Of a stretch of DNA of 42,359 bases, positions 3-14,081 are shown piece after piece (within the stretch, counting starts at the first letter, position 1; every line of letters starts with the position of its first letter). Origin of the DNA: Candidatus Parvarchaeota archaeon (lineage in GTDB: Archaea > Nanobdellota > Nanobdellia > Parvarchaeales > Parvarchaeaceae). The notes under the pieces are model-generated. The model was not told where the DNA came from. It did not search any database and saw only the letters and a program-made list of their open reading frames with translations. The stretch is taken from contig JAGDXV010000022.1 in assembly GCA_023261805.1 (NCBI GenBank), positions 1-42,359 on the forward strand, read 5' to 3'. The position numbers and the translations under genes are program-made.

Positions 3-938
3 TTGCCGACGCAAGTGGAGGTCCCTGTGATAACGGATCTGTCAGACATATGTCAGGTTGCCCAGACAACATACAAACCAGGCGTAAATCTGAATATAGA
101 ACTGCAGCCAAGCGGTAATGGTTCTATTACCTTTTCTCTTTCACAAGGATTATTTAATACTCTTTGTAACAAAAACAGCAAAATATATCCTCACTCGATG
201 GCGACTTTCATTAATGACATAATCTCTGCAGGTAACAATGGCGGCGGATATGTGAGCATGCTTCTTCCCCCGCAGTATTCTCTCGGAATAACGGAGGGAA
301 ATAACGCAGATCTGTGCTTATTTCAGAATTTAATTCAGCCGGATGGAAATCCTTTCATGGTAACTGGAAATATCAGAGGAAGCAGGTTTTATCGGCAGAG
401 CGAGTATCCTATTCAGTATGGAAGGGAAGAAGTTTGTATCAATCTTACAAACATAACAAACGGCGCATACAGTATTAGTCTCTCGCCTCCTTCACAAAAT
501 TATCTCACAAATGGAAATCTCTCTTTCATCAATAATGCATCCGTCATCGGCTTTTCAATACCGGCCAATTCTTATCCAAATCCATTTTCTTTGGGCTCTC
601 CTTATGTGCAGGCTAACTATATCGCTTCAAATAGATTTTTTACTATAGAACCTTCACTCGGTATAACTTCTCCTTTATATAACACTTTTCTTTCAAAGTT
701 AGCTACCAAATTATCTCCTATGTTTTCGAGTACTGCTCAAGCAGCCATTTCAGCTTCATTCACATTCAGTTCTCCCGGTCCAGATCTTCTCTATTATCAA
801 ACAGGATACACAAATGTAACGTTTGAAGTGAATAAAATCGGAGACAATTATCAGCTAAGTTTTATATCAAATAAGATAGTGTTTGGAGTGTATCCAAATA
901 ATGATAATGAAATAGGAGGTACTTACACGCAAAGTTAG
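3..938 (+). CDS. Hypothetical surface/secreted protein, probably 5'-truncated by the window edge
   Basis: ORF open from the window start. S/T/N/G/Y-rich and K/E/R-poor, with several N-x-S/T sequons and Cys. Stop lies 3 nt before the next ATG. Confidence 0.6.
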   Translation: MPTQVEVPVITDLSDICQVAQTTYKPGVNLNIELQPSGNGSITFSLSQGLFNTLCNKNSKIYPHSMATFINDIISAGNNGGGYVSMLLPPQYSLGITEGNNADLCLFQNLIQPDGNPFMVTGNIRGSRFYRQSEYPIQYGREEVCINLTNITNGAYSISLSPPSQNYLTNGNLSFINNASVIGFSIPANSYPNPFSLGSPYVQANYIASNRFFTIEPSLGITSPLYNTFLSKLATKLSPMFSSTAQAAISASFTFSSPGPDLLYYQTGYTNVTFEVNKIGDNYQLSFISNKIVFGVYPNNDNEIGGTYTQS

Positions 939-941
939 GAT

Positions 942-1769
942 ATGGCTTTACCAGAGTTGATGGGGTTTGCGGATGCAGGGATACTCTTAGCAGCTTTCGC
1001 ACTGTTGCTTGTCGTTCTGTCTTACAATGTATCGCAGATCAATAGCCTTATGATATTTGCCAATGCAAAAGCATTTGTAACGGCGCTCAGCACAAGACTG
1101 GTCACCTCTCCAAACTGTTTTGCATATGAACAGCAGATGCCTTATTATAATCAGCAAGGTTACTCTGGTATTCCTGCAGACAGTGTGAGCATTCAGAGCT
1201 CTGAAACACCAGGCGTAATCAGTTTTTCAAAGTTTATCACAAATAATTTTCTTTCATGTGCTCAATACACTTATTATGGCGGTGCTACAGACGTACCCTT
1301 TAGCAAGACTCTAATACCAGATATGGTGGGTATATCCGTAACATTAACTGACACGCAGGATCCAACAGGCCTCGCTGGGCAGAGGTCGTTGACCTTGTCC
1401 AACTTTCCTCAGTATGAGTATGGATCAGCATTTGTATCCGCTGAGGAAGGTACAGCAAGGGCGGCTGAGGTCGCGGAGGCCGTGTTATTTGTAGGAAGTG
1501 TCGCAATAAATGTTGCGATAGGAGTGCTTACTGCTGGGATATCTTATGCTTCCGGTATAAATGTCAATCTCATAGGAGTACTGGGTTCAAATTCTCATAA
1601 CAGTATAGCTCCACAGTATGTTTTGTCCTATCTTTTGCTTTCAGAGAACCGGTATACAGAGTCAATACCTGTAGTGATACAATTTACCAATCCTGAAAAT
1701 CAACCAACATACACGAACTATGGTGTGATGAAGATAACAGTCTTGTACGGGACTAATTATGGAAGTTAA
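942..1769 (+). CDS. Membrane-anchored hypothetical protein, pilin-like cluster member
   Basis: N-terminal hydrophobic helix (GILLAAFALLLVVLSY), Glu at +5 (MALPE), second hydrophobic stretch AVLFVGSVAINVAIGVLTAG. Overlaps the next gene by 11 nt. Confidence 0.6.
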   Translation: MALPELMGFADAGILLAAFALLLVVLSYNVSQINSLMIFANAKAFVTALSTRLVTSPNCFAYEQQMPYYNQQGYSGIPADSVSIQSSETPGVISFSKFITNNFLSCAQYTYYGGATDVPFSKTLIPDMVGISVTLTDTQDPTGLAGQRSLTLSNFPQYEYGSAFVSAEEGTARAAEVAEAVLFVGSVAINVAIGVLTAGISYASGINVNLIGVLGSNSHNSIAPQYVLSYLLLSENRYTESIPVVIQFTNPENQPTYTNYGVMKITVLYGTNYGS

Positions 1770-2328
1770 TAGAAAAGGTCAGATAACACTGATAGATCTT
1801 ATTTTAGCGCCGTTGGTAGCGGTGATACTTTCGGTGATAGCTGTTATGATATTACAGGGATCCACATTTCATCTGATCAATGAGGTTAACATGGAGCCTA
1901 CTGTTGAAGCGTGCAACTTTGGACTTGAAACGCTTTTTTCTTCCTATTATGTTCATACAGCTTCTTCATTGCAATATCTTCAGTCAGCTCATCCGAATCA
2001 GTATGCGGTGGCCACGACAGAACCATTGCAGATCCAGACAGTAAGCTGCGGATATAATTGTTCTGTATCATATGAAGATATTCCTAACACATTGGGAACA
2101 TCATCAGATTTCTATGTAGATTTCATACAGTATTTCGATCCTTTTGCGTTGAGCGTTTTCAATGTTTCCGTTGGGGAAGATGCACCCGAAATGCAGGCCT
2201 TTGGGATGCAGGTGTTTTTGAATAGAGTACCTGCGTTGCCATATACACCATCAGAAGTATGCAGTCTCACTGTATTTAATCCGCAGGATCCAAGCAATCC
2301 ATATACTATCTATGGGGTGATGAGATAA
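1759..2328 (+). CDS. Type IV pilin-like protein with class III signal peptide
   Basis: MEVNRKG|QITLIDLILAPLVAVILSVIAVMIL fits the archaeal prepilin-peptidase motif [KR][GA]|Q followed by a hydrophobic helix. Four Cys in the globular part. Confidence 0.7.
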   Translation: MEVNRKGQITLIDLILAPLVAVILSVIAVMILQGSTFHLINEVNMEPTVEACNFGLETLFSSYYVHTASSLQYLQSAHPNQYAVATTEPLQIQTVSCGYNCSVSYEDIPNTLGTSSDFYVDFIQYFDPFALSVFNVSVGEDAPEMQAFGMQVFLNRVPALPYTPSEVCSLTVFNPQDPSNPYTIYGVMR

Positions 2329-5300
2329 TGAGTAAGAAAGGTCAGGTCAATATAATCGCAGTAATAGGGATGATAGCAGCGACAATAATTGCGCTGATGA
2401 ACCTGATGAACTACGTTAATGAATTAGGTCTCAGCTCAGCAATATACATAAACGCACAAAACAGCATCTATCAGGTGGCGGGGATGAAGGATTATATCCT
2501 TCAGCAAGCTCAGTACAACTTTGATAAGGCACAGTTGATGACTGGATTGAATCTTGTGCCATCAACAACTTCATGCGGTTATATAAATGGGACACAGCTA
2601 CTTCCACAATTGGGAATTCCGAAGATATACTATTGGAACACACCTTCTGGTCAGACATGCTTGCCTTACAATTCAGAGATAGAATATGCGATACTTAAGA
2701 TATTGAGTCAACCAAGCTTTTCAACGATTCCCGTGAATAACAGTCCTGACTTCAAAGAGTACATTGACATAAATTTAACACATGAGTCAGGTGATCTGTA
2801 TCAAGGTTCATTCACCTCGCCTGTTTTCAATGGGCAATATGTAATAACTTTGGATAAGTCTCAGGACACCGTCAGTGTGACCTATAATGGTAATACTGTC
2901 GCATCCGGCCCGGTTCTATCCACATATCTTTCTATCGGAAATTACTCCTTCCTTTTGGGTCCGGTTGAGAGCACAGTAACAGGAGTATTAAATCAACCGG
3001 CATATCAGGCATCTTTCTTTTCAGGGTCCTTTGTTTCTCCAAGTTCTCAGTACGGTCTGATAACTTTCAATGGTCAGCAGGCGATAGTATATAGCAACCA
3101 GACAAACGGAATGTTTTCATTCCATTTAGCTATTCTCCAAAATCCGTATGCATACACCCTTTCAGAGGCAGATGGAGGGAAAGTTTATAACCTCATAAAC
3201 GGATCAGACACGACTATAGATGGTGAGCCGTATCTTTTCCTTATTACAAACGATACAAACGGGATATTTTCCCTCTCTCCAGTTGATTACACAACTCTTG
3301 CGATCCAGCCCAATTTTGTCTTCATGAAATACCTTGTTAATTCCTTCCAATTGTCAGGTAGTCAGAATCTCCTATTCCCATCGGAAAAGAATCTGTATGT
3401 ATCCCTTTTCACATTTCCTCTGTATAATCCGCAGGTCTGTGTTTCCTCGAATGTAGGCACCTTTTCTATACAGGACTGCTTAAGTCTCGCCGGGCAGGTC
3501 TCTTCGCAGGATTATCTTAGCAATCTTTTGCAGCTGAGCATCGCCTTCGTAAATCAGTCTTTTCCTATCGGTCAGATAAGCATACAGGGCTTTCCGCAGT
3601 ATCTGATATACAATTATCTGGAAAATGTTATCCATGGCGTAAACATGAGGACGGTCTCCGTGAACGGAAGGCCGAAATATGATTGGTACTCATCATTGAT
3701 TTTTGCGATAGGGTCACCGAATGGGCAACAGTATTTGGAGAATGAGATAAGTTGTGCGAAGGAAAATTATTATGGCACTACAATATACGATTGTTCACAA
3801 ACTCCTTCCTGTCTGAGTACATGCAGAAGTGTTCTTTCACAGACCCTTGGATACGCCATCAACAATCTGCTCAGCAATCAAGAGCAGGAGGAATTAAGTT
3901 TCTTGAGCGGTTATCCATTCTCTGTGAGTGTATTGAATGTATCAGTTTCAGCAGCGGAAGCGGCCAACTGTGGAAGCGGAAGTGCATCGTACAGTTATAC
4001 ATATCAGCCCCCTTCATCAGCAGGAACATCATCAGAAGAAGTATTAGGTGTTCCCATCTCTCTTATATTTGGTTACAAAAATGGACTCAAGCTCACACCA
4101 ACTGAGGGCTGCGGTTTACAGGAGGACCCTCAAACAGCCTGTTATCCTGGCTTCTCAACCACTTTGTCTGGAAATTCCAAATCTGGTTTTGATATATTCT
4201 CTTGCTGCTCACCGATATTAGCAAACCAATTCCTAAATAGGACATGCATCGCTAACCTTGGTACGAATAACAGAGCAGTAGCAGAATACATAAACTACTC
4301 AACCGGCCCTCAAAACAACGGTATATGTAGCGCAGGGACGCAAGATGGGCAAACTTATTACTATTGCAATCATTTTATTTTTAATGAAACGAATCCCCTG
4401 TTCGAACCGCAAGGATATATATCGGATTGGGTTCTTCACAGCAATTCCTGTCCAAGTACGATAACTATCGCTGGCCAAACTTTCTCTCAAGGAAATAAGG
4501 ATTACGATATATTATCAGAATACGGCGGTGGTACAAGTCAACCGACTTACTCCCTTTACAACTGGACTTCAGCTTACATTGACAATTTGGATTTGGCAAA
4601 CATATCCGTTCACATGTCAGCAAATTTGGGCGGTGCTGCACCGAACTTAGCCGTCATATTCTCCAGCGGGAATATATCATCTTCTCAGAAGCTCAGTTCT
4701 CCAGCCTTTGCGGTCGATGTGGACATACATGACGGCTCAACCTTTGCTTATAATTCTAATGCAGGGATGATGACAAATGTAGGTGCCGGGGCCGTATACG
4801 CATCCACTGGAAATAATCAAGTGGTCGTTGATAAATCTTGTCTGTCGGGCGAGTGTACTGTGGTGGCCTACGAGAATTCAAGGGAAGCTCTGAATCAATC
4901 CTTCTCCAGCGGTAGCGAGACAGAATCGCTAGGAATATCAACAGGTTCATTACCGTCAAATGTTATTGTACCTGAGTTTTTCGTTACAAATTACTTCCCA
5001 AGCTATGCACCAAAAATAATCATATCATCATATCAGCCAGCCACATTTTTGAATCGTGGCCTGCCAAGCGCAAGTGCTTTTAATATAAGCTACAAATATT
5101 TGGGTCAGACTTACTTCAACGTGATTTCTATAGAAAACGGCAGGAAGTTACCTGCATCCTATCAGCTTGAGGTTCCCCTGACCTCACAGTTTTATGTTTC
5201 ACAGATGTTTCCCAACGAGATAAAAGTTTTTGCAGTATATTCACTTGGAAATGTTAAAGAATTAAGCTGGTGGAATGAGACACCAATCTCTGTTGGGTCT

Positions 5301-6017
5301 CCGCTATGGATAAATATCACAAACAATCCTCCAAGAACCATTTACATTGTCTATGGTCAGGGCGTTGCGTACAACAGTGATTCATACGCTGACAATGGAT
5401 CAAAAGTTTTTCCAGTCTTCTTTTCGAACATCACTCTTCCTTCATCCGAGAGCTTTTCCTTGCTTTATCCTGCAATGCCGTCAGATAATTCGACCGTCAG
5501 CAGCGCCGGACTAGTCCTTCAGCAGAATTCACCCATTCCGCCTTACATTTACAACGTAAGCAGCGGAAGGTTCTATGAGCAATTCGCCTGTGTTACGAAG
5601 TCCTCTATGCTACTCGTAAATGCTTCTTATGCATCTTCATTGCCTTCTATTAACCTTCAGGATCTTTATGGAGCATATGATCCTCTTTATCCAAATCTTT
5701 ATATAATAGGAACTTCCACCCCCTCGGCTCAAGCATCTTCTTTTGTAACAACTTTCTACGCTACCAATTTGCTGCAAGGTGCAACTTGGGAAGTAACTTA
5801 TGATGGAATAGAGAAAACGTCTACAAATCCAACCATCTCTTTCGTCACCCCTCTGGGAACTTATCCGTTTACGATAGGTGGGTCGGTTGCCATTTCTACG
5901 TGCTATGACTATTTTGGAGCTCCTTCTGTGACGAGTGGAAATGAGCTTGCTGGCGGTTCAGTCAGTGTGACCTATGATTATCATGGGGTTCCAACCCATG
6001 CTCCGGGGTGCGGATGA
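2328..6017 (+). CDS. Large (1229 aa) pilin-like surface protein with class III signal peptide, DUF2341-like segment and C-terminal acidophile-type beta module
   Basis: MSKKG|QVNIIAVIGMIAATIIALM. TAATG stop/start overlap with the previous gene. DUF2341-like YQLEVPL...ELSWWNE...LWINI...TIYIVYG...DNGSKVF. C-terminal TFYATNLLQGATWEVTYDG...TISF...GTYPFTI. Confidence 0.7.
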   Translation: MSKKGQVNIIAVIGMIAATIIALMNLMNYVNELGLSSAIYINAQNSIYQVAGMKDYILQQAQYNFDKAQLMTGLNLVPSTTSCGYINGTQLLPQLGIPKIYYWNTPSGQTCLPYNSEIEYAILKILSQPSFSTIPVNNSPDFKEYIDINLTHESGDLYQGSFTSPVFNGQYVITLDKSQDTVSVTYNGNTVASGPVLSTYLSIGNYSFLLGPVESTVTGVLNQPAYQASFFSGSFVSPSSQYGLITFNGQQAIVYSNQTNGMFSFHLAILQNPYAYTLSEADGGKVYNLINGSDTTIDGEPYLFLITNDTNGIFSLSPVDYTTLAIQPNFVFMKYLVNSFQLSGSQNLLFPSEKNLYVSLFTFPLYNPQVCVSSNVGTFSIQDCLSLAGQVSSQDYLSNLLQLSIAFVNQSFPIGQISIQGFPQYLIYNYLENVIHGVNMRTVSVNGRPKYDWYSSLIFAIGSPNGQQYLENEISCAKENYYGTTIYDCSQTPSCLSTCRSVLSQTLGYAINNLLSNQEQEELSFLSGYPFSVSVLNVSVSAAEAANCGSGSASYSYTYQPPSSAGTSSEEVLGVPISLIFGYKNGLKLTPTEGCGLQEDPQTACYPGFSTTLSGNSKSGFDIFSCCSPILANQFLNRTCIANLGTNNRAVAEYINYSTGPQNNGICSAGTQDGQTYYYCNHFIFNETNPLFEPQGYISDWVLHSNSCPSTITIAGQTFSQGNKDYDILSEYGGGTSQPTYSLYNWTSAYIDNLDLANISVHMSANLGGAAPNLAVIFSSGNISSSQKLSSPAFAVDVDIHDGSTFAYNSNAGMMTNVGAGAVYASTGNNQVVVDKSCLSGECTVVAYENSREALNQSFSSGSETESLGISTGSLPSNVIVPEFFVTNYFPSYAPKIIISSYQPATFLNRGLPSASAFNISYKYLGQTYFNVISIENGRKLPASYQLEVPLTSQFYVSQMFPNEIKVFAVYSLGNVKELSWWNETPISVGSPLWINITNNPPRTIYIVYGQGVAYNSDSYADNGSKVFPVFFSNITLPSSESFSLLYPAMPSDNSTVSSAGLVLQQNSPIPPYIYNVSSGRFYEQFACVTKSSMLLVNASYASSLPSINLQDLYGAYDPLYPNLYIIGTSTPSAQASSFVTTFYATNLLQGATWEVTYDGIEKTSTNPTISFVTPLGTYPFTIGGSVAISTCYDYFGAPSVTSGNELAGGSVSVTYDYHGVPTHAPGCG

Positions 6018-6089
6018 AAAGATAAATATGAGATACGGGAAAAATCTTAATAGTGAGCGGCTTGGCGAACAGAATCACAAGGTGGTGAT

Positions 6090-9000
6090 ATGGCAATAAC
6101 AAGACTGAATGGTTTTCTACTGTCTATCCTTTTTTTATTAGTTATAGTTTTCGTTTTCAGTTTTTCTGCGAGTAGAAATACTGTTAATTCTACTCCTGTA
6201 GGTAACTCCATTTTATCTCCATATGTATTATCGAGCTTAAACAAAACAGTTTCAAGTGTTGATTCAATAAGCAGTCTGGATCCATCATTTTCAAATTTGA
6301 TATCCAATAATGAGTATATTTGTCCTTCTTATCCATGCGCCTTGAACAGCAGCATTTGGAACACTTACTCCCAACTTGCTGAACAATCAGGAACACTTTC
6401 AAGTATCTTCTCAATTTTAACAACCAGTATCCTTGGTATACTCTCCGTTCCTTTGAACAACGGATTCGATCAAGTTAACCAGTTTATACCAGGTGCCGTA
6501 AGTGGCACTACCTGCATTGCTCCATCCTCATTTTCTTATTATGGCCCTTTTTTGCCGTCTGGTTCGACTGACACTTCATACAGTGATTTCACGGGCTTCT
6601 TTGGATATCCTCAGGAGAGTACTATCACGCCAGAATATAATGTCAAATTTCCTTCTTTGTTTTCTGGGATAATAAATCTGACGGAAGTATTGACTTTTAA
6701 TCTAGCTGAGGGCAGTGTTAGATCTCCTTATGATGAACCAGGTTCAAAGGGAGTCTATAACATAATTGAATGGGGTCAGAGCTCGCTTCACTATTATCCT
6801 GGCACTAGTTACATGTATGCGGAGAGCACTGATGCAGATCTTTATGTGAATGCATCGCCCGGTCAATCCAGTATGATATCTGGGAACACTTTTATAGTGC
6901 CTGCAATATCTTGCGGTGCAACTGCTACTCCGCCCGTTTTAATCGGCACGACGTATGCAGTTCCTCTAACTTCCGGGTTTGTACCCGCTGTTGGTCTGGC
7001 GGCACAGTCTTCAGTAGGATCGATAGTTAAATCACTTGTTGTAAACGAGTTTTCGAGTGATGACATGTTCTGGTCTTTTTATCAGTATGAGGGCCAGTTC
7101 CCGCAGCTTGCTGTTAAAACACTGAAATCGGATTTCAACTTCACTGAGCCCTCGTTGAATTATGCCGCTTTTCCACCTGGAAACAATGGGGATTCACAAT
7201 ATATTAACAATTCAGGTTTCTTTTCGGTTCCTGTTAATGCAACTTTATTCTTTGGGCAGCAGTTTAATCAGCAGAACTTCTTTGTGTACGAAAGCAACAA
7301 TACAATTTTAACATATCAAACAAGTTCAGATACTCCATCCCTTGCAGATGCTACTAAGGTTTCAAATGTTTCAGCATATTCTGTCCCGAACTTAGTGCCT
7401 GCATATTGGCCTTTCTTAGGCGTATTCGGGGGTTCTTTTGGGTCGAGTAGCGGTCCAGATCCTGCTCTCATATACGATACTTTCAAGGTAGATGGGATTC
7501 TCCCGGTTTGTAATATCGGAAATGGGTACAGTTACTGCACCATGAACAACGCAACGAGCGTAAATCCGATATCACCATACAGGCTTTGGGATTATGAAGT
7601 TAGTGGAAATACTTATAGAACAGGATCAATGTTTGGTGGCAGAACAACAACTCAAAACATAGGAACTTGCCATAACGGAATATGTGCTGTTCAGCCGCAG
7701 TCATATTCTGAGCCGCTGAATCAAAATCCGTATGCTCCGGGTTACGATCCGAACGATGTTTACATTAATACTCTGGAAGAAGATGCTCTGAACAGTTTCT
7801 GTTTCTATGGAGATAATTTTGATACATCAACCGGAGTTTACGATTCGCCGAGCTATACAAGGATAATTCCTCCTCTTTCATCAGAGAACTACACTGTAGC
7901 TTTAGGGAAGTGTAATGGCTTTTTCAATAGCACGGATTGCTTTGGCAGTAGTAATGGGAACTATCTCAATTTTGAATCGGGAATATTTTTATCCAAAGTT
8001 TCATGTACATCAAACGGGATATATCCAACTAATGTTACAGATGCATGGATAAGCAGCGTATCGATAGCTAACAATGCTGGGCAATTCTGTGGTTACTTCG
8101 GTGGTAAGAAGGCTCCAGTGAATCCAGTGACGTTTACTGGACTAGGTCAGCTTTATGCCAACAACACAGTTTTCACCGATACGGTTTCCTCCTGTCCTAG
8201 TTTTAATAACGGTTCTGCTTATGTCAATCTACTCGTGACGGTCCAAAACGTTGGTAATTCCTACATCACTGCCCCCTATTTGTATGTTTTGTATGGAAAT
8301 GTTCAACCGAGTCAGATGTTTTATGCAGAGCAGAATACACCGCAAAATGATTACGAGCTTTATCAGACTTTTCTTCTGAACATGAACTCTCAGTCAAGTG
8401 GGCTGATCCAATTGAGATATCTTAATGGGGGACCGCAAGAAGACATGTTCTTCTCAAGGCCCGGAAATTCAGCTCAGGATATCCCTATCTCCGAACTGTT
8501 TTCTGGGGATCAGGAGTATGTAAACGGTCCATACAACAATTCGCTGTTAGGAATGTGGCTGGATTATAATGGAAAAATAATAAGGACTTCGAATACCTTT
8601 CTGTCTTACTCCAATTCAGGCAATACTTTTCCAACTGTTATAATACCTGGAGGAAAGGCATCCTTTGATATAGAAATTCCCCTTCCAGTTTTTGAGATGC
8701 TTCTGAAGAACAACGAAAAGATAGGGATATACTTTGGAAACATGTTCAATGTTAATTGGTGGAACACACAGATTGGTCAACAATACGTTCCTTCAAGCAC
8801 CTCAAACTCAACTTATACCCACAATACTGAATATCTTGATCCTTCATCTTCTTATCCTATGCCGATCTGGCAATACATAGTCGGATCGGAGATGAACATT
8901 GGAAATTCTGTTTTCAAATCCGTTTCAATCTACTCGGATAGTTTCAGTTTGTCGGTTTCGGCTGATAACAATAATGCAAGCATACTTGATTTGGGTGTCA

Positions 9001-12000
9001 GTACAAACATATTGAAATTCAATGGAAGCGGTTTGTATAACCTGACTAAGATTCAAGAGGGATCGAACGGCGTCGGTCCTTTATCAGGTTCTTCTTTGAC
9101 CTGCTTTGCTACGCAGGACAACATGAACGACTTTGACGTTTTCTGGAGCGTTCACGCGGCTTCGTCATCAAATCTTAAGTTTTTGATGGAGAAATACTAC
9201 GGTGAAAATGCCTATCAAAATGAGATAATTAATATTTGGCGTGGGCTTGTATTCATGCCGTATGCTTCGAATGTCGTTTTGAACTACAATAATCTCCCGT
9301 ACTTCCCAACTGATACGGCATCCTTTTCTCTGGAGGAGCCTGCTATTAATTCTTCTTCTACCGTGAATCAAAAGATCGGTTTCGTTTCGCTTCAGGAGAC
9401 CGGGGAACAATCCTCCCTGAAGGCGCTTTCCGATGTTTATCATACGCTAAATACGACGAGAGTGAATATTTCGCAGGCTTTTCCTACGCCAGCAAGTATG
9501 TACGGTTTCTCGATATCTGCCCTCGTCCCAATTAAAAATCAATCGATTCTGAAGATAGGCGCTATGACTCAGGTATCGAATTCTTCTCCTTTCTCCGATA
9601 TTCCGGTATCTATCACTTTGCTTAATGCTGATGGATCCACTTGTTTGTCTGGAGTGTATCCGACAGATCAGTATGGTGTTGTCAATATCACAGAAGCATG
9701 CAGTGGACTGGAAGGCGGTAAGGCCATAATTACTTCTCCTTCAGGGCCGTTCAGCGTCACAATGTATAACAATACTCCTTTGAATATCACAAATACCTCC
9801 TATAACGGAGCCATGGTTGTGGCCGGGAATTTCTCTAGCTTTTCTTCCAACAACGGGTATAGAGTTACTTTGAACTTGGCCAATTCGGTTTTCAACGGTA
9901 ATGGAGTCTCATTTACGTTCTCCTATATTCCGGAATCGTTAGTTTACAAAAATTCCTTGCTCTATCTGTATTATCTTAATGGGACTCCATTTAACTGTAA
10001 TCCCGTGGATGAAAACATCTTCGGGGTTAGCACTTTGGCTCCTGGAGAATACAGACTTTACAATGGCTCAATACTTTGTTCAATCAATTCTCCATTCAAC
10101 TATCTCCGTGCTGTCTTTTTCAACGTCACAAACGGCGCATATCTTGGTGGAGGAGACATAGAAAGTGGATTGATGATAGCATACAATCAATCTTCGCAGG
10201 GCAATTTGTTGAAGTTTTGGTATAATGGCAAGCCAGTGACTTCCCAGGACGTCAACATGTCGGAAATATTTCCATCTCAATCACCGCCATATTATACAGC
10301 AAACAGTTGTGTTCAAAACCAGCTGATCACGAATGGTGTCCTTAATCTATCTGATTCAAGTGTGTCTTCTTGCAGTTCACTGGGAAATGGGCAAAATTAT
10401 ACTATTGATTTATATGTTAGTTCTGGTGGGGTAATGACGAAGGTCTCCGCTGCAATTTTCAATCTGTCTTTGCCGGCATCGGGAAGTGGGATGATTTCGA
10501 TGTCTCCGCAAGTAGTTTTGGATGCTCCATCGGGCATACAGAACTTAACTATAAACAATCCTAGTGTACCTACCCCTGTCTTCTTCAGCGTGGCTTCAAC
10601 CGCTGTTACATCTTGCAACGACATCAGGTTAATACAACCGAGTGGAAATGCATTCCCATATGAGGAAATTCCTTTCCAGGTAGTTTCAAATGTAAGTCTA
10701 TGCGATTATGTGTTTATTGCCCGGCCATCTTTATCTGGGAGTAAGATAACATATGAAATCTATAGGTCGACGCAACCGGCGATCCCATACTCATCTAATT
10801 GGGGTAGCTTTTCGAATGATGTTTACTATTATAAAATTAAAGCTGATAACTATTCAGCGGATCTTCTTCCGAATTGTATGGCCTCTTTGGGTCCTTGTCT
10901 TTCTAATGTCACCGCTTTTGGAAAGTCTGTTGGTACTTTGCTTTTGAACAATGCTTCCGCTTATTCTACTGAAATGAGACCGGTGGCAAGCGGGCCAGTC
11001 ATGAACTGCATAGACGTTTTGTATACTTCCTCATATACATTAAAGCTTCCGGTCAGCGGGTTTGGAGGATTAAATTACAACCTTAATAGACTTTATCAGA
11101 TAGCCACTCCTTCTCAGCAGATAATAAGTTCTTACTGTTTCTTTAGAGGAAGCGACGTTATCCTTGATTATATTTCAATGACGGGCCCTCAAGTTCCGTT
11201 TAGTTTAGAAAATAAACTTAACACTACTTTCATATCTGCTCAGTCTGGAAATGGTTTATCAATGGGCCTTCCAAAGCCAATCTCTACCTCTTGCCTAAGC
11301 AGTACGACAGCTTCATATACAACGACGACTGTTGGTGTTGGTGGAAGCACAACAACCTATGTTATCTCCCCAAACTGTTTGTCAATACCTCCTCCGCCTC
11401 AAGAACCCAACATGAAAAATGTTACATTGCCAAGCTCCTATTTCAATACAGCTAATGGTCCGTTTTTCTGTCTTGGTCAAACCTATCCAACTTATACACC
11501 TCAATTTGAATTTTACTCCACTGGTACACAAGCTGATTCGTATGGAAATTACAACAATATGTCTGGCGGTCTAAGTTACCTTTATACTCCTGGTAATTAT
11601 AGTATCACAACTCAGTATGGAAATACGATATACTATGATACTTGCATACCACCGAGTGGAACTGCGGAGACTGTAAATACGCTCAATGAGCCAAAGTTCT
11701 ATTTTGGTTCTTCAATTGGGCAGCCATATGATGGCTCTTCAGGGGAAAATTATCTTGAGAAAAACGTGGCGATGACAGCGATTAAGAACACAGGTGTTTC
11801 AAGCAACATACTCTTTAATCCAAATGGCGGTGAACTCATAGGAAAGTGTCCGATCAATACATCGATAAGTGATTACACATTTTGTATCAAGCCTGTAGGA
11901 AGCCAGTACTTTTATCCAACCAATTCATATCCAGGTGGACTTGAAGGGCTTCCAAATAATCGTTCGAGTGTTTACAATTATCCAATAGGGGGCGGCTGCC

Positions 12001-14081
12001 TTGTCGATACTAATAATCCCTCAGGTCAGTATTACTGCGCACCTACTTTCGGCAATCTTAGCAATTCTTATCCAGGAAGTACTTCATATGATTCAGTCAA
12101 TGTCAGCTCTGAAGGGTCACTTCCTTATGAATGGTCAAGCAGCAAGAATTCGAATACTTTGTCTTCGCAGAGCCTTGAGGCAAGTTTCAGCTGCTCCGGT
12201 CAGGCAACTGTAGAGGAAAGCGAGTCGGTAGAGTACTATGAGTATAACACAACAACTGGCAATATACTTAATCCAGACGCAGGATCATGTACATTTTATA
12301 CGACACAGAATGAACCAGTTTCATGTAGTTATAATAATGGAATGAGCTCAGGTAGCAGATGCAGTACAAGTTTCTCAAATGGAAATCTTCAATCAGCAAT
12401 AAGCAGTCCTTCGACAGAGATCACCCTGAGTCCAGTTTCCTACTGCAAGCTTAATGAGAACCCGGCTGAGTACAGCACCTGGTACGTCTCTCCTGAATGT
12501 GCCCCTCCTCCAGGAAATGCAACTGCAGGTTATGCTTATGCAGTTTACACTTCACCAAGTGAAGCTAGAGAATCTGTCGTCAAAGTATATCCATATTCAC
12601 TGACTATATACACCACCGCCATAAGCTTGAATCAGGGTGAGAATACAACCTACTATCCAGGGGATTATTCTGATAGTTGTCAAAATGGAACCACTGCCAT
12701 AAAAGATGATGTTGGATTTGGATGGTCTTGGCATCCATATATGTCTTATGAGTTCGGTGTTTACACAACAAATCCTGATGGAATACCTTTAGTTGGTGGC
12801 TGCGAGGCGAACAGGGATACTTATGATGTAACAAATCCGACAATTTCTGTATCTACAAGTGGAAATGGATACCAATATACCTATTCCTGTCCTTCAGGCT
12901 ACTCCGGAAGCATACTGTCATGCGAAAACGAGTCAGCGTCGCGATCAGCAACTTTGAATAGCTCAGTCTTCAGTGCATCGTGTACATCAACATCCCCTGT
13001 GCTTACACAGACCACACAGCAATATTCGTCAAATTCACCGTATTATGGTGCAGCATGCACATCATGCGCCTCTCTTCCAAGCGGGGATCAGAATCTTTAT
13101 CAGCAACCGAATCCTCAAGCGTCTTGTCTTGCTCTTCCAAGGACGCAATTCAACAGTACAATGGCTCCGTATGTGCTTCAGTATTCGAATGATTCCAATA
13201 TAGGAATAGGTCTCGGAGTTTTAGGACCAAATTCAAGGTTGAATATCACTTTGCCCGGAGACACCGAGTCTACGCATAAGGATCTTTATATGACAAGTCT
13301 TTCTGAGGTGCAGACAGAAGCAGAGAATCTGTTCCTTCAGCTTTATCCTTTCTCTGCTTTGAATCAGAAAACTCTCGCATCAGGAATGGAAGAATCGTTC
13401 ATGTTTCCTTTCGATCTTCTGGATGCGTATCTCCTTCAGAATCCTTACTTTGGTGTGAGCGGCGAGCCAGGATTTATCAATGGAAGTGTATATGATGATG
13501 CAATGAATATCTTTTCAGGAGGCACACAATACAATTGTCCTAGCTCCAGCTTGAGGGGGAACTACGGAATATACGCCCTTGGAGAAGGTGTTCTTTGCGA
13601 TGGGAATAACCTGCCAAGCGACTATGTCAATGGAATCTACGCTTCATTAGGCACGTTGAATGAGGGACCACATGCTGTTCAGTTCTATAGCGTATCTGCT
13701 GGAAACAACAGCATACCTCCTACCGTTGGACTTTATAGTAGCGGCGGTCGGGCGGTTTCATTGAATACCGCTTGTTCGAATGGAAATAGCAGGTCTTTTA
13801 CGTTCTCCTATGATGGGACACAGAAGACGTTTGATATTTCATCGGATGACGAATGCGATCCAATAAACAATCTTTTGTATGGGTACATAATAAATTGCAT
13901 GTATCAGACACCGGAAAATCAGACCTATAACATAGGGTCAGTTTATTATTTAGCTTATGATCTACCAACAGTTTGGGATGTTAGTTATACCCTTCTTGTT
14001 TCTCCAAGGAGCTATAATGTTGTGCCGGTCAAGGTGAAGCTAGCGACAGGAAGCAGTGGCTCTTACATAACGATAGGCTAA
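6090..14081 (+). CDS. Giant (2663 aa) N-terminally anchored or secreted Cys-rich surface protein, putative adhesin
   Basis: Uninterrupted 8-kb ORF with GGTGGTGAT Shine-Dalgarno-like site. Hydrophobic N-terminus FLLSILFLLVIVFVFSFSA, many N-x-S/T sequons and Cys, no C-terminal TM helix. Confidence 0.75.
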   Translation: MAITRLNGFLLSILFLLVIVFVFSFSASRNTVNSTPVGNSILSPYVLSSLNKTVSSVDSISSLDPSFSNLISNNEYICPSYPCALNSSIWNTYSQLAEQSGTLSSIFSILTTSILGILSVPLNNGFDQVNQFIPGAVSGTTCIAPSSFSYYGPFLPSGSTDTSYSDFTGFFGYPQESTITPEYNVKFPSLFSGIINLTEVLTFNLAEGSVRSPYDEPGSKGVYNIIEWGQSSLHYYPGTSYMYAESTDADLYVNASPGQSSMISGNTFIVPAISCGATATPPVLIGTTYAVPLTSGFVPAVGLAAQSSVGSIVKSLVVNEFSSDDMFWSFYQYEGQFPQLAVKTLKSDFNFTEPSLNYAAFPPGNNGDSQYINNSGFFSVPVNATLFFGQQFNQQNFFVYESNNTILTYQTSSDTPSLADATKVSNVSAYSVPNLVPAYWPFLGVFGGSFGSSSGPDPALIYDTFKVDGILPVCNIGNGYSYCTMNNATSVNPISPYRLWDYEVSGNTYRTGSMFGGRTTTQNIGTCHNGICAVQPQSYSEPLNQNPYAPGYDPNDVYINTLEEDALNSFCFYGDNFDTSTGVYDSPSYTRIIPPLSSENYTVALGKCNGFFNSTDCFGSSNGNYLNFESGIFLSKVSCTSNGIYPTNVTDAWISSVSIANNAGQFCGYFGGKKAPVNPVTFTGLGQLYANNTVFTDTVSSCPSFNNGSAYVNLLVTVQNVGNSYITAPYLYVLYGNVQPSQMFYAEQNTPQNDYELYQTFLLNMNSQSSGLIQLRYLNGGPQEDMFFSRPGNSAQDIPISELFSGDQEYVNGPYNNSLLGMWLDYNGKIIRTSNTFLSYSNSGNTFPTVIIPGGKASFDIEIPLPVFEMLLKNNEKIGIYFGNMFNVNWWNTQIGQQYVPSSTSNSTYTHNTEYLDPSSSYPMPIWQYIVGSEMNIGNSVFKSVSIYSDSFSLSVSADNNNASILDLGVSTNILKFNGSGLYNLTKIQEGSNGVGPLSGSSLTCFATQDNMNDFDVFWSVHAASSSNLKFLMEKYYGENAYQNEIINIWRGLVFMPYASNVVLNYNNLPYFPTDTASFSLEEPAINSSSTVNQKIGFVSLQETGEQSSLKALSDVYHTLNTTRVNISQAFPTPASMYGFSISALVPIKNQSILKIGAMTQVSNSSPFSDIPVSITLLNADGSTCLSGVYPTDQYGVVNITEACSGLEGGKAIITSPSGPFSVTMYNNTPLNITNTSYNGAMVVAGNFSSFSSNNGYRVTLNLANSVFNGNGVSFTFSYIPESLVYKNSLLYLYYLNGTPFNCNPVDENIFGVSTLAPGEYRLYNGSILCSINSPFNYLRAVFFNVTNGAYLGGGDIESGLMIAYNQSSQGNLLKFWYNGKPVTSQDVNMSEIFPSQSPPYYTANSCVQNQLITNGVLNLSDSSVSSCSSLGNGQNYTIDLYVSSGGVMTKVSAAIFNLSLPASGSGMISMSPQVVLDAPSGIQNLTINNPSVPTPVFFSVASTAVTSCNDIRLIQPSGNAFPYEEIPFQVVSNVSLCDYVFIARPSLSGSKITYEIYRSTQPAIPYSSNWGSFSNDVYYYKIKADNYSADLLPNCMASLGPCLSNVTAFGKSVGTLLLNNASAYSTEMRPVASGPVMNCIDVLYTSSYTLKLPVSGFGGLNYNLNRLYQIATPSQQIISSYCFFRGSDVILDYISMTGPQVPFSLENKLNTTFISAQSGNGLSMGLPKPISTSCLSSTTASYTTTTVGVGGSTTTYVISPNCLSIPPPPQEPNMKNVTLPSSYFNTANGPFFCLGQTYPTYTPQFEFYSTGTQADSYGNYNNMSGGLSYLYTPGNYSITTQYGNTIYYDTCIPPSGTAETVNTLNEPKFYFGSSIGQPYDGSSGENYLEKNVAMTAIKNTGVSSNILFNPNGGELIGKCPINTSISDYTFCIKPVGSQYFYPTNSYPGGLEGLPNNRSSVYNYPIGGGCLVDTNNPSGQYYCAPTFGNLSNSYPGSTSYDSVNVSSEGSLPYEWSSSKNSNTLSSQSLEASFSCSGQATVEESESVEYYEYNTTTGNILNPDAGSCTFYTTQNEPVSCSYNNGMSSGSRCSTSFSNGNLQSAISSPSTEITLSPVSYCKLNENPAEYSTWYVSPECAPPPGNATAGYAYAVYTSPSEARESVVKVYPYSLTIYTTAISLNQGENTTYYPGDYSDSCQNGTTAIKDDVGFGWSWHPYMSYEFGVYTTNPDGIPLVGGCEANRDTYDVTNPTISVSTSGNGYQYTYSCPSGYSGSILSCENESASRSATLNSSVFSASCTSTSPVLTQTTQQYSSNSPYYGAACTSCASLPSGDQNLYQQPNPQASCLALPRTQFNSTMAPYVLQYSNDSNIGIGLGVLGPNSRLNITLPGDTESTHKDLYMTSLSEVQTEAENLFLQLYPFSALNQKTLASGMEESFMFPFDLLDAYLLQNPYFGVSGEPGFINGSVYDDAMNIFSGGTQYNCPSSSLRGNYGIYALGEGVLCDGNNLPSDYVNGIYASLGTLNEGPHAVQFYSVSAGNNSIPPTVGLYSSGGRAVSLNTACSNGNSRSFTFSYDGTQKTFDISSDDECDPINNLLYGYIINCMYQTPENQTYNIGSVYYLAYDLPTVWDVSYTLLVSPRSYNVVPVKVKLATGSSGSYITIG

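Follow-up and report, generated by a model that had tools for sequence, protein, structure and literature searches.

The window analysed in this study is a stretch of 42,359 bases of DNA (contig C15, bases 1–42359) from the genome of a Candidatus Parvarchaeota archaeon (G000), which comprises 546,589 bases in 33 contigs and is 88.7% complete. Five open reading frames (ORFs) of the + strand, designated O1 to O5, occupy bases 3–14081 of the window, i.e. 14,079 of the assembled bases (2.6%). We consider, with moderate confidence, that these genes encode a module of a type IV filament (T4F) made up of minor or modular pilins and a giant adhesin. An interpretation of this kind had been put forward in a first-pass annotation, which assumed an undescribed filament or tip complex with very large glycosylated subunits that might serve host binding. 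It is supported by the filament machinery encoded in the genome, by the conserved gene order, by the linkage to an ATPase gene in three distant relatives and by the lectin-like module predicted for O4; the glycosylation is not supported. For host recognition and attachment by ultra-small DPANN archaea, the operon supplies named candidates for the adhesive end of such a filament, namely a putative pilin of 1229 amino acids (aa) with a lectin-like module, a partner of 2663 aa and three smaller subunits.

Organization of the gene cluster

The ORFs and the modules discussed below are the following:

O1, bases 3..938, + strand: C-terminal 311 aa of a large pilin-like protein, with the 5' end open at the contig start
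O2, bases 942..1769, + strand: leaderless pilin-like protein of 275 aa
O3, bases 1759..2328, + strand: small pilin-like protein of 189 aa with the class III signal RKG|Q
O4, bases 2328..6017, + strand: modular pilin-like protein of 1229 aa with the class III signal KKG|Q
O4, lectin-like module, bases 4560..5000, + strand: ConA/galectin jelly roll predicted by the AlphaFold2 model (residues 745–891)
O4, C-terminal module, bases 5703..6014, + strand: predicted beta-sandwich of ~80–100 aa (residues 1126–1229)
O5, bases 6090..14081, + strand: secreted giant protein of 2663 aa with 54 Cys residues

The ORF positions and direct reading of the sequence bear out the five co-directional genes and the junctions described in the first-pass annotation, and the sizes it gave for the last three proteins (189, 1229 and 2663 aa) are correct. 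O1 and O2 are separated by a 3-nt gap (TAG gat ATG), O2 and O3 overlap by 11 nt, O3 and O4 share a TAATG overlap, and a spacer of 72 nt lies between O4 and O5. The tight coupling of O1 to O4 suggests equimolar production. A composition rich in S, T, N, Y and C and poor in K, E and R was likewise found when the proteins were compared to the 21 housekeeping ORFs of the window. S, T, N and Y together account for 27–38% of the residues in O1–O5 (housekeeping ORFs 21%) and K, R and E for 6–7% (20%), while Cys amounts to 1.8–2.1% in O3–O5 and 0.7–1.3% in O1 and O2 (0.4%). The predicted isoelectric points of the operon proteins range from 4.1 to 4.8. This composition is typical of exported proteins in an acidophile.

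Linkage to the type IV filament machinery

The lack of a filament ATPase or of a prepilin peptidase in the genome had been named in the first-pass annotation as evidence that would speak against a filament. The genome encodes two T2SSE ATPases, T2SSF genes and an A24 prepilin peptidase. Two T2SSF genes lie behind the gene for a T2SSE ATPase of 506 aa, and a gene for a longer ATPase of 744 aa (L029:7142-9376) is followed on contig C9 by that of a polytopic partner of 698 aa, the orthologues of which show weak T2SSF-like similarity. PF00437 was detected twice on C9, and PF00482 was also detected twice. The A24 peptidase is encoded on contig C30 (PF01478, E 2.3e-11). On the same contig (L031:253-4764, − strand), three paralogous-looking class III genes of ~300 aa with the motifs SRA|Q, IGANG|A and GKRG|G lie immediately downstream of the gene of this peptidase (278 aa) and are read in the same direction. 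They are candidates for shaft pilins or further surface proteins.

The 744-aa ATPase connects the cluster with filament loci of distant relatives. In a sample of 301 genomes of the phylum, with the own genome, G274 and G275 included, the O2 profile matched 13 genomes (E<=0.01), the own genome among them. Clear cases outside the family were G215, in which the contig is too short to show the locus, and G039. In G039, G026 and G025, which represent other families of the class, an O2-like gene is part of a co-directional locus of 20–30 kb that is headed by the gene of an ATPase of 761–798 aa. The loci of G039 and G026 begin with this ATPase (798 aa and 763 aa, respectively) and its partner (671 aa and 681 aa), contain several small class III pilins and carry the whole O1–O5-like cluster as their distal part. 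In the locus of G025 (~30 kb), the ATPase gene (761 aa) is followed by five tandem small pilins, a class III protein of 920 aa and the O2-like gene. The 744-aa ATPase is 50–53% identical over its full length to the ATPases of G039 and G026, and the partners are 32–40% identical.

Two further features of these loci were observed. The five tandem pilins of G025 (L049:8065-9741, − strand; 87–151 aa) share the bacterial-looking motif KG|FTF(E/A/S/T)Q. On the side of the long ATPase opposite the pilin genes, G039, G026 and G025 possess a conserved group of genes (L047:9052-12316, L048:2123-5028 and L050:6289-9458), which encodes a coiled-coil-like protein of ~130 aa, a protein of ~210–280 aa and three membrane proteins of ~180–200 aa.

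The locus of the Parvarchaeaceae is broken up into three pieces or more (C9, C5 and C15). On contig C5 (951-3553, + strand; 7482-10071, − strand), homologues of two accessory genes of the ATPase-to-adhesin locus of G039 accompany very small class III pilin-like ORFs of 57–67 aa, and further ORFs there have 145, 160 and 311 aa. The C5 cluster is a third piece of the scattered system. In DPANN archaea, T4F genes are scattered while ATPase and platform genes are adjacent, and a joint action of the pieces is described as unclear (PMC13705601). The contiguous loci of the three relatives are genomic evidence that the scattered pieces once belonged to a single system, and they probably still function together.

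For the N-terminal 300 aa of the long ATPase, matches were found in 295 of the 301 genomes (293 of 299 without the unpublished genomes G274 and G275). The motor is therefore near-universal in the phylum, and the O1–O5 module is either lineage-specific or diverged beyond recognition. The filament subunits of this near-universal DPANN motor are mostly unrecognised.

N-terminal signals and properties of O1, O2, O3 and O5

Leaders that are short and positively charged, have Gly or Ala as their last residue and are directly followed by ~20 hydrophobic residues were regarded as class III signals. Three of the five proteins possess such a signal, namely O3, O4 and, as judged from its relatives, O1. 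The signals of the KG|Q type noted previously in two proteins were confirmed for O3 (MEVNRKG|QITLIDLIL) and O4 (MSKKG|QVNIIAV), each with ~20 hydrophobic residues behind the motif, and both motifs are kept in the six relatives with fetched loci. An ad hoc class III rule selected 21 of the 642 gene-like ORFs of the genome (~3%) and 2 of 345 internal control windows; the motif is therefore no chance feature.

O1 is open at its 5' end, because the window begins at base 1 of C15. The corresponding proteins have 809–831 aa in five of the six fetched relatives and 1286 aa in G009. Their N-termini follow the pattern M..KKA|QIVIGIGVIIL, with the class III-like motif KKA|Q or KRA|Q and RRT|Q in one case. 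O1 is 30–36% identical to the C-terminal parts of these proteins, and a tblastn search of the own assembly did not retrieve its N-terminal part. A partial class III ORF (MNTKG|Q..., C7 bases 1–511, − strand) was considered as the missing start of O1 and was rejected, because its end does not overlap and it shows no similarity to the O1 orthologues.

O2 begins with MALxE(L/M)M, followed by a transmembrane helix, and no leader is present in the family Parvarchaeaceae. Glu5 and the cysteines C59 and C106 are invariant, the motif R..TSPNCFAY is conserved, and a second hydrophobic stretch is located at residues 174–202. Distant homologues possess class III leaders (KKG|QVQIE, KKS|QMEIT and KA|QLE), all with an acidic residue near position +5. 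The leaderless Glu5 start and the leaders of the homologues thus indicate that O2 is a pilin-like protein which has lost the leader and kept the acidic residue. In O3, an Asp residue at +6 is invariant, whereas O1 and O4 have no acidic residue at that position. An AlphaFold2 model of O3, based on an alignment of 27 rows, predicts an N-terminal helix (residues 11–60) followed by an alpha/beta part. A prediction of the O2+O3 complex, calculated without controls, yielded a score of 0.00 and speaks neither for nor against binding.

The N-terminus of O5 consists of K/R and a hydrophobic stretch of ~20 residues, which resembles a Sec signal or a signal anchor, and the O5-like proteins of distant relatives have classical Sec signals. 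Hydrophobic segments occur at residues 1–32 and 102–122 only, and a C-terminal transmembrane segment is missing. Within O5, conservation is highest in the C-terminal 260 aa, and internal repeats were not found by BLAST. The O5-like protein of G039 contains a Laminin_G_3 domain (E 1.7e-16). Conservation of this domain in O5 was considered and rejected, since 73 aligned columns contained 17 identities and most of the domain was gapped.

Four pilin-like proteins combined with one cargo-like protein of the Sec type could also form a type II secretion-like system, in which O1–O4 constitute a pseudopilus that pushes O5, and perhaps other exoproteins, out of the cell, with O5 being released or acting as a host-directed effector. 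The acidic residue at +5 or +6 in some of the subunits only would agree with this, as in the pseudopilin tips of bacteria, where GspK lacks this residue, and so would the tight coupling of the genes and the subtilase gene immediately upstream of the 744-aa ATPase gene in the own genome. We nevertheless regard such a secretion system as improbable: O4 bears a lectin-like module and, with 1229 aa, is far above the size of known pseudopilins, and no enzyme domain was found in O5 by Pfam and PDB searches.

Conservation of the cluster

Orthologue-level matches to O4 were obtained in 18 of the 24 other genomes of the family; of the remaining genomes, three match its C-terminal module of ~80 aa only and three show no match. 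The first-pass annotation had proposed a comparison of synteny, and the order O1-O2-O3-O4-O5 proved to be conserved across the family, being kept in all six relatives with fetched loci. In four of them, the gene O6 for an adenosine-specific kinase follows O5, whereas the contigs of the remaining two break off within O5. The genes that precede O1 in the relatives are housekeeping genes, namely those of a CCA-adding-like enzyme (judged from the start of its sequence) and an Lhr-like helicase.

The conserved order also bears on the possibility that O1–O5 are merely co-located, fast-evolving surface proteins without functional relation, whose pilin-like start is the common export signal of the lineage. 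The frequency of class III-like starts in the genome (21/642) would fit this explanation, as would the lack of mutual sequence similarity among O1, O4 and O5 in BLAST comparisons. Gene order and overlapping junctions are, however, kept across genera at 30–50% identity, and the same five-gene order occurs in other families. We therefore consider a fortuitous co-location very unlikely.

The predicted lectin-like module of O4

An AlphaFold2 model of O4 was calculated for residues 31–1229 from an alignment of 15 rows. The mean predicted local distance difference test (pLDDT) value is 56.9; several beta-rich stretches are confident, and the N-terminal 113 residues of the model are below 50. Residues 745–891 (model residues 715–861; pLDDT 52–83 in blocks of 10 residues) were predicted to form a jelly roll resembling lectins. 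The closest similarity was obtained with the carbohydrate-binding module CBM66 (4azz_A; Z 14.0, root mean square deviation (rmsd) 2.1 A, 133 aligned residues), followed by galectins (Z ~13). Foldseek assigned a probability of 1.00 to the matches with CBM66 and galectin-10, and a structure search other than Foldseek retrieved CBM66 with Z 13.6. Similarity was also found to PilC of Streptococcus sanguinis (7oa7_A; Z 11.1, rmsd 2.9 A, 130 aligned residues), to phage receptor-binding proteins (Z 11.1) and to a legume-lectin domain of M. jannaschii (Z 10.2). The sequence identity to these structural matches is 9–13%. According to the model, O4 carries a predicted ConA/galectin-like extra domain on the C-terminal side of its pilin moiety. 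In the O4 orthologue of G008, the region of the lectin module has a sub-threshold match to Laminin_G_3 (E 7.6e-4), and two other orthologues have sub-threshold matches to DUF2341 (E 3.3e-4 and 0.034).

No other part of O4 varies as much as the lectin-like module. Within the family, the identity of this module is 26–30%, compared to 53–56% for the N-terminal and central parts, and it is mostly absent from distant relatives (65–70% gaps).

The C-terminal ~100 aa of O4 were modelled as a beta-sandwich (block pLDDT 77–89), and residues 1135–1217 have many matches in giant ORFs of the relatives. The own genome encodes a further protein with this module, a class III protein of 1252 aa (DKA|Q; C18, L032:1987-5745, + strand), which matches DUF2341 above the Pfam cut-off and in which the ~80-aa terminal module of O4 occurs at least six times. 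As a candidate for a giant pilin-like adhesin, this protein is the second one in this small genome.

Proposed function and alternative explanations

If O1–O5 belong to a type IV filament, the following mechanism can be proposed. O1, O3 and O4 would be synthesized as class III prepilins and cut by the A24 peptidase of the genome. O2 would enter as a pilin-like subunit without cleavage, which it would not need because it starts with a mature-type N-terminus and has kept Glu5. The 744-aa ATPase and the 698-aa platform protein would then extract O1–O4 from the membrane via their N-terminal helices, and the four proteins would be built into the filament, most likely at its tip, while the shaft would consist of small class III pilins whose genes lie at other sites of the genome. 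At the tip, O4 would display its fast-evolving lectin-like module. The Sec-type protein O5 might be attached to the complex via its conserved C-terminal region, like PilY1 on bacterial minor pilins, and O1–O5 could jointly bind glycans or proteins on the surface of the host cell. We infer the processing, the incorporation into the filament and the attachment of O5, and, by analogy to known systems, the tip location and the host binding.

Several observations weigh against this interpretation. The lectin fold predicted for O4 is shared with sugar-binding proteins and is as such no demonstration of sugar binding. The model of O3 is poor (mean pLDDT 55.1), and a pilin lollipop fold, in which an alpha1 helix of ~50 residues bears a globular head, is therefore putative at most. 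The N-terminus of O5 has no conserved G/A|X class III motif, and its association with the pilin-like proteins is inferred only. The own cluster adjoins no ATPase gene, nor does the region upstream of O1 in the relatives. In G005, a marker-complete member of the family, neither O2 nor O4 was detectable; the module is therefore non-universal within the family and dispensable or replaceable. The stretch is present in three DNA datasets from one study, labelled hot springs metagenome, and no RNA run is listed as containing it. Furthermore, the search for the oligosaccharyltransferase STT3/AglB (PF02516) was negative in the own genome, which is 88.7% complete, and positive in only one of five relatives of the family (G002, G005, G007, G009 and G015), in spite of their surface proteins rich in N, S and T. 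The numbers of sequons in O5 (64) and O4 (24) are modestly above those of composition-matched shuffles (50.4 +/- 6.2 and 18.5 +/- 3.6, respectively), and O1 contains 6 sequons compared to 6.0 in the shuffles. Because AglB was not found and the sequons exceed the composition only modestly, the earlier assumption of glycosylated subunits is unsupported. Finally, class III signals of archaea also occur on surface proteins outside filaments, for example on substrate-binding proteins in the bindosome of Sulfolobales (PMC13705601).

The last point leads to a further explanation, according to which O1–O5 form a surface sheet or sheath resembling an S-layer or a bindosome. The class III signals would then serve only peptidase-dependent anchoring or short pseudopilus-like stalks, and O5 would be the S-layer-like protein. 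S-layer-like proteins are frequent in archaeal T4F loci (PMC4858521). O5 is huge, Cys-rich and acid-adapted with a Sec-like start, and the C-terminal module of O4 recurs across many giant surface ORFs. The first-pass annotation had stated that assignment to an S-layer or a known enzyme family would contradict a filament; neither was assigned by Pfam or NCBIfam, although novel S-layer families are possible. O5 also lacks a C-terminal anchor, the cluster was not found in G005, which one would hardly expect of a principal wall protein, and the locus is linked to the ATPase and to small pilins in three relatives. Altogether, we regard a surface sheet as unlikely, though less so than the secretion system discussed above.

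For the preferred interpretation as filament subunits, a more far-reaching version can be formulated. The long ATPase might drive a host-docking filament with a lineage-specific tip of giant pilins, in which the O4 module and O5 set the host specificity and O2 represents a class of leaderless Glu5 pilins that require no cleavage. This version is conceivable and at present rather doubtful. If it holds true, the operon would encode the host-recognition organelle of Parvarchaeota and could be used as a template for locating equivalent modules in other DPANN archaea that have diverged beyond recognition.

Homologues and comparison with known systems

No Pfam family was assigned to O1, O2, O4 or O5, and the single sub-threshold row obtained for O3 (E 0.098) is a chance match. 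NCBIfam yielded no family for O2–O5 or for the full-length O1 orthologue of G002. Sequence and profile searches of the PDB with O4 and O5 gave best E values of 0.011–0.12 to unrelated proteins, and look-ups of O4 and of the C-terminal 604 aa of O5 in the ESM Atlas gave no usable match. The families are narrow. O3 has 24 homologous clusters among 5.8 billion proteins, and 37 were obtained for the N-terminal 500 aa of O4, all of the latter without a Pfam domain. The O2 profile matched 24 representatives at E<=1e-3, 12 of them at E<=1e-10, among 1.84 billion. All homologues that bear a name are called 'hypothetical protein' and derive from Parvarchaeum ARMAN-4, Ca. Rehaiarchaeum or 'Parvarchaeota archaeon'. 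In Parvarchaeum (ARMAN-4 group), which is another genus of the family, the orthologues of the operon are 40–48% identical. No paper was found under the locus-tag prefix of ARMAN-4.

In the examined passages of genome papers on Parvarchaeota, generic pilin genes only (PMC10134863) and pili-like structures (PMC5864196) are mentioned; the genes of O1–O5 may be listed in the supplementary tables S4, S5 and S10 of PMC13705601. The designation of the system as undescribed is only partly correct, since minor pilins and large proteins resembling adhesins have been predicted before for archaeal T4F loci (PMC4858521 and PMC13705601). This study adds the contiguous ATPase-to-adhesin loci of three distant relatives and shows O2 to be a leaderless subunit with Glu5 and the lectin module to be variable.

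By analogy, two bacterial systems appear to be closest, namely the lectin-bearing PilC of S. sanguinis and the tip complex of four minor pilins with PilY1. As no homology to them was found, we do not assign O1–O5 to these families. PilC of S. sanguinis is a modular minor pilin with a ConA-like lectin module, is stabilised by PilA and forms a tip-located complex with PilB (PMC9934059). Like PilC, O4 combines a class III signal and an N-terminal helix with a grafted module of the lectin-type jelly roll, which is a predicted one in O4, and as in the pilus of S. sanguinis, the gene of the large pilin has that of a small partner pilin next to it. O4 differs from PilC in its archaeal origin and shows no sequence similarity to it; it is also larger, presumably by a factor of about 2–3. 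Moreover, unlike in S. sanguinis, four pilin-like genes are combined with a gene for a non-pilin of 2663 aa, O2 is leaderless, and glycan binding is only putative.

In bacteria, the core minor pilins FimU, PilV, PilW and PilX, or GspH to GspK, are known, the pili carrying the large non-pilin PilY1 as tip adhesin. Similarly, four pilin-like subunits and one very large Sec-type protein are encoded in a single operon here, an acidic residue at +5 or +6 is present in only some of O1–O4, and the C-terminal part of O5 is its most conserved one, as in PilY1. O5 and PilY1 are not homologous, and the C-terminal propeller of PilY1 is not matched in O5, for which no Pfam family was obtained; the DUF2341 matches below the threshold belong to orthologues of O4 and not to O5. 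An analogy to PilY has been discussed for archaeal filaments (PMC4858521 and PMC13705601).

Among archaeal systems, the loci of T4F system 2 encode an N-terminally extended ATPase, a single platform protein, pilin-like proteins that either bear a class III signal (SPIII) or lack it (non-SPIII), and large adhesin-like proteins (PMC13705601). Unlike these loci, that of the Parvarchaeaceae is split, and the families of O1–O5 match no Pfam or NCBIfam model. The components are otherwise alike and comprise an ATPase of 744 aa with one partner of 698 aa, pilin-like proteins of which some have the class III motif and others lack it, and large adhesin-like proteins. The gene architecture of T4F system 2 fits in G039, G026 and G025 and, by orthology, in the own genome, and all four are candidates for this system.

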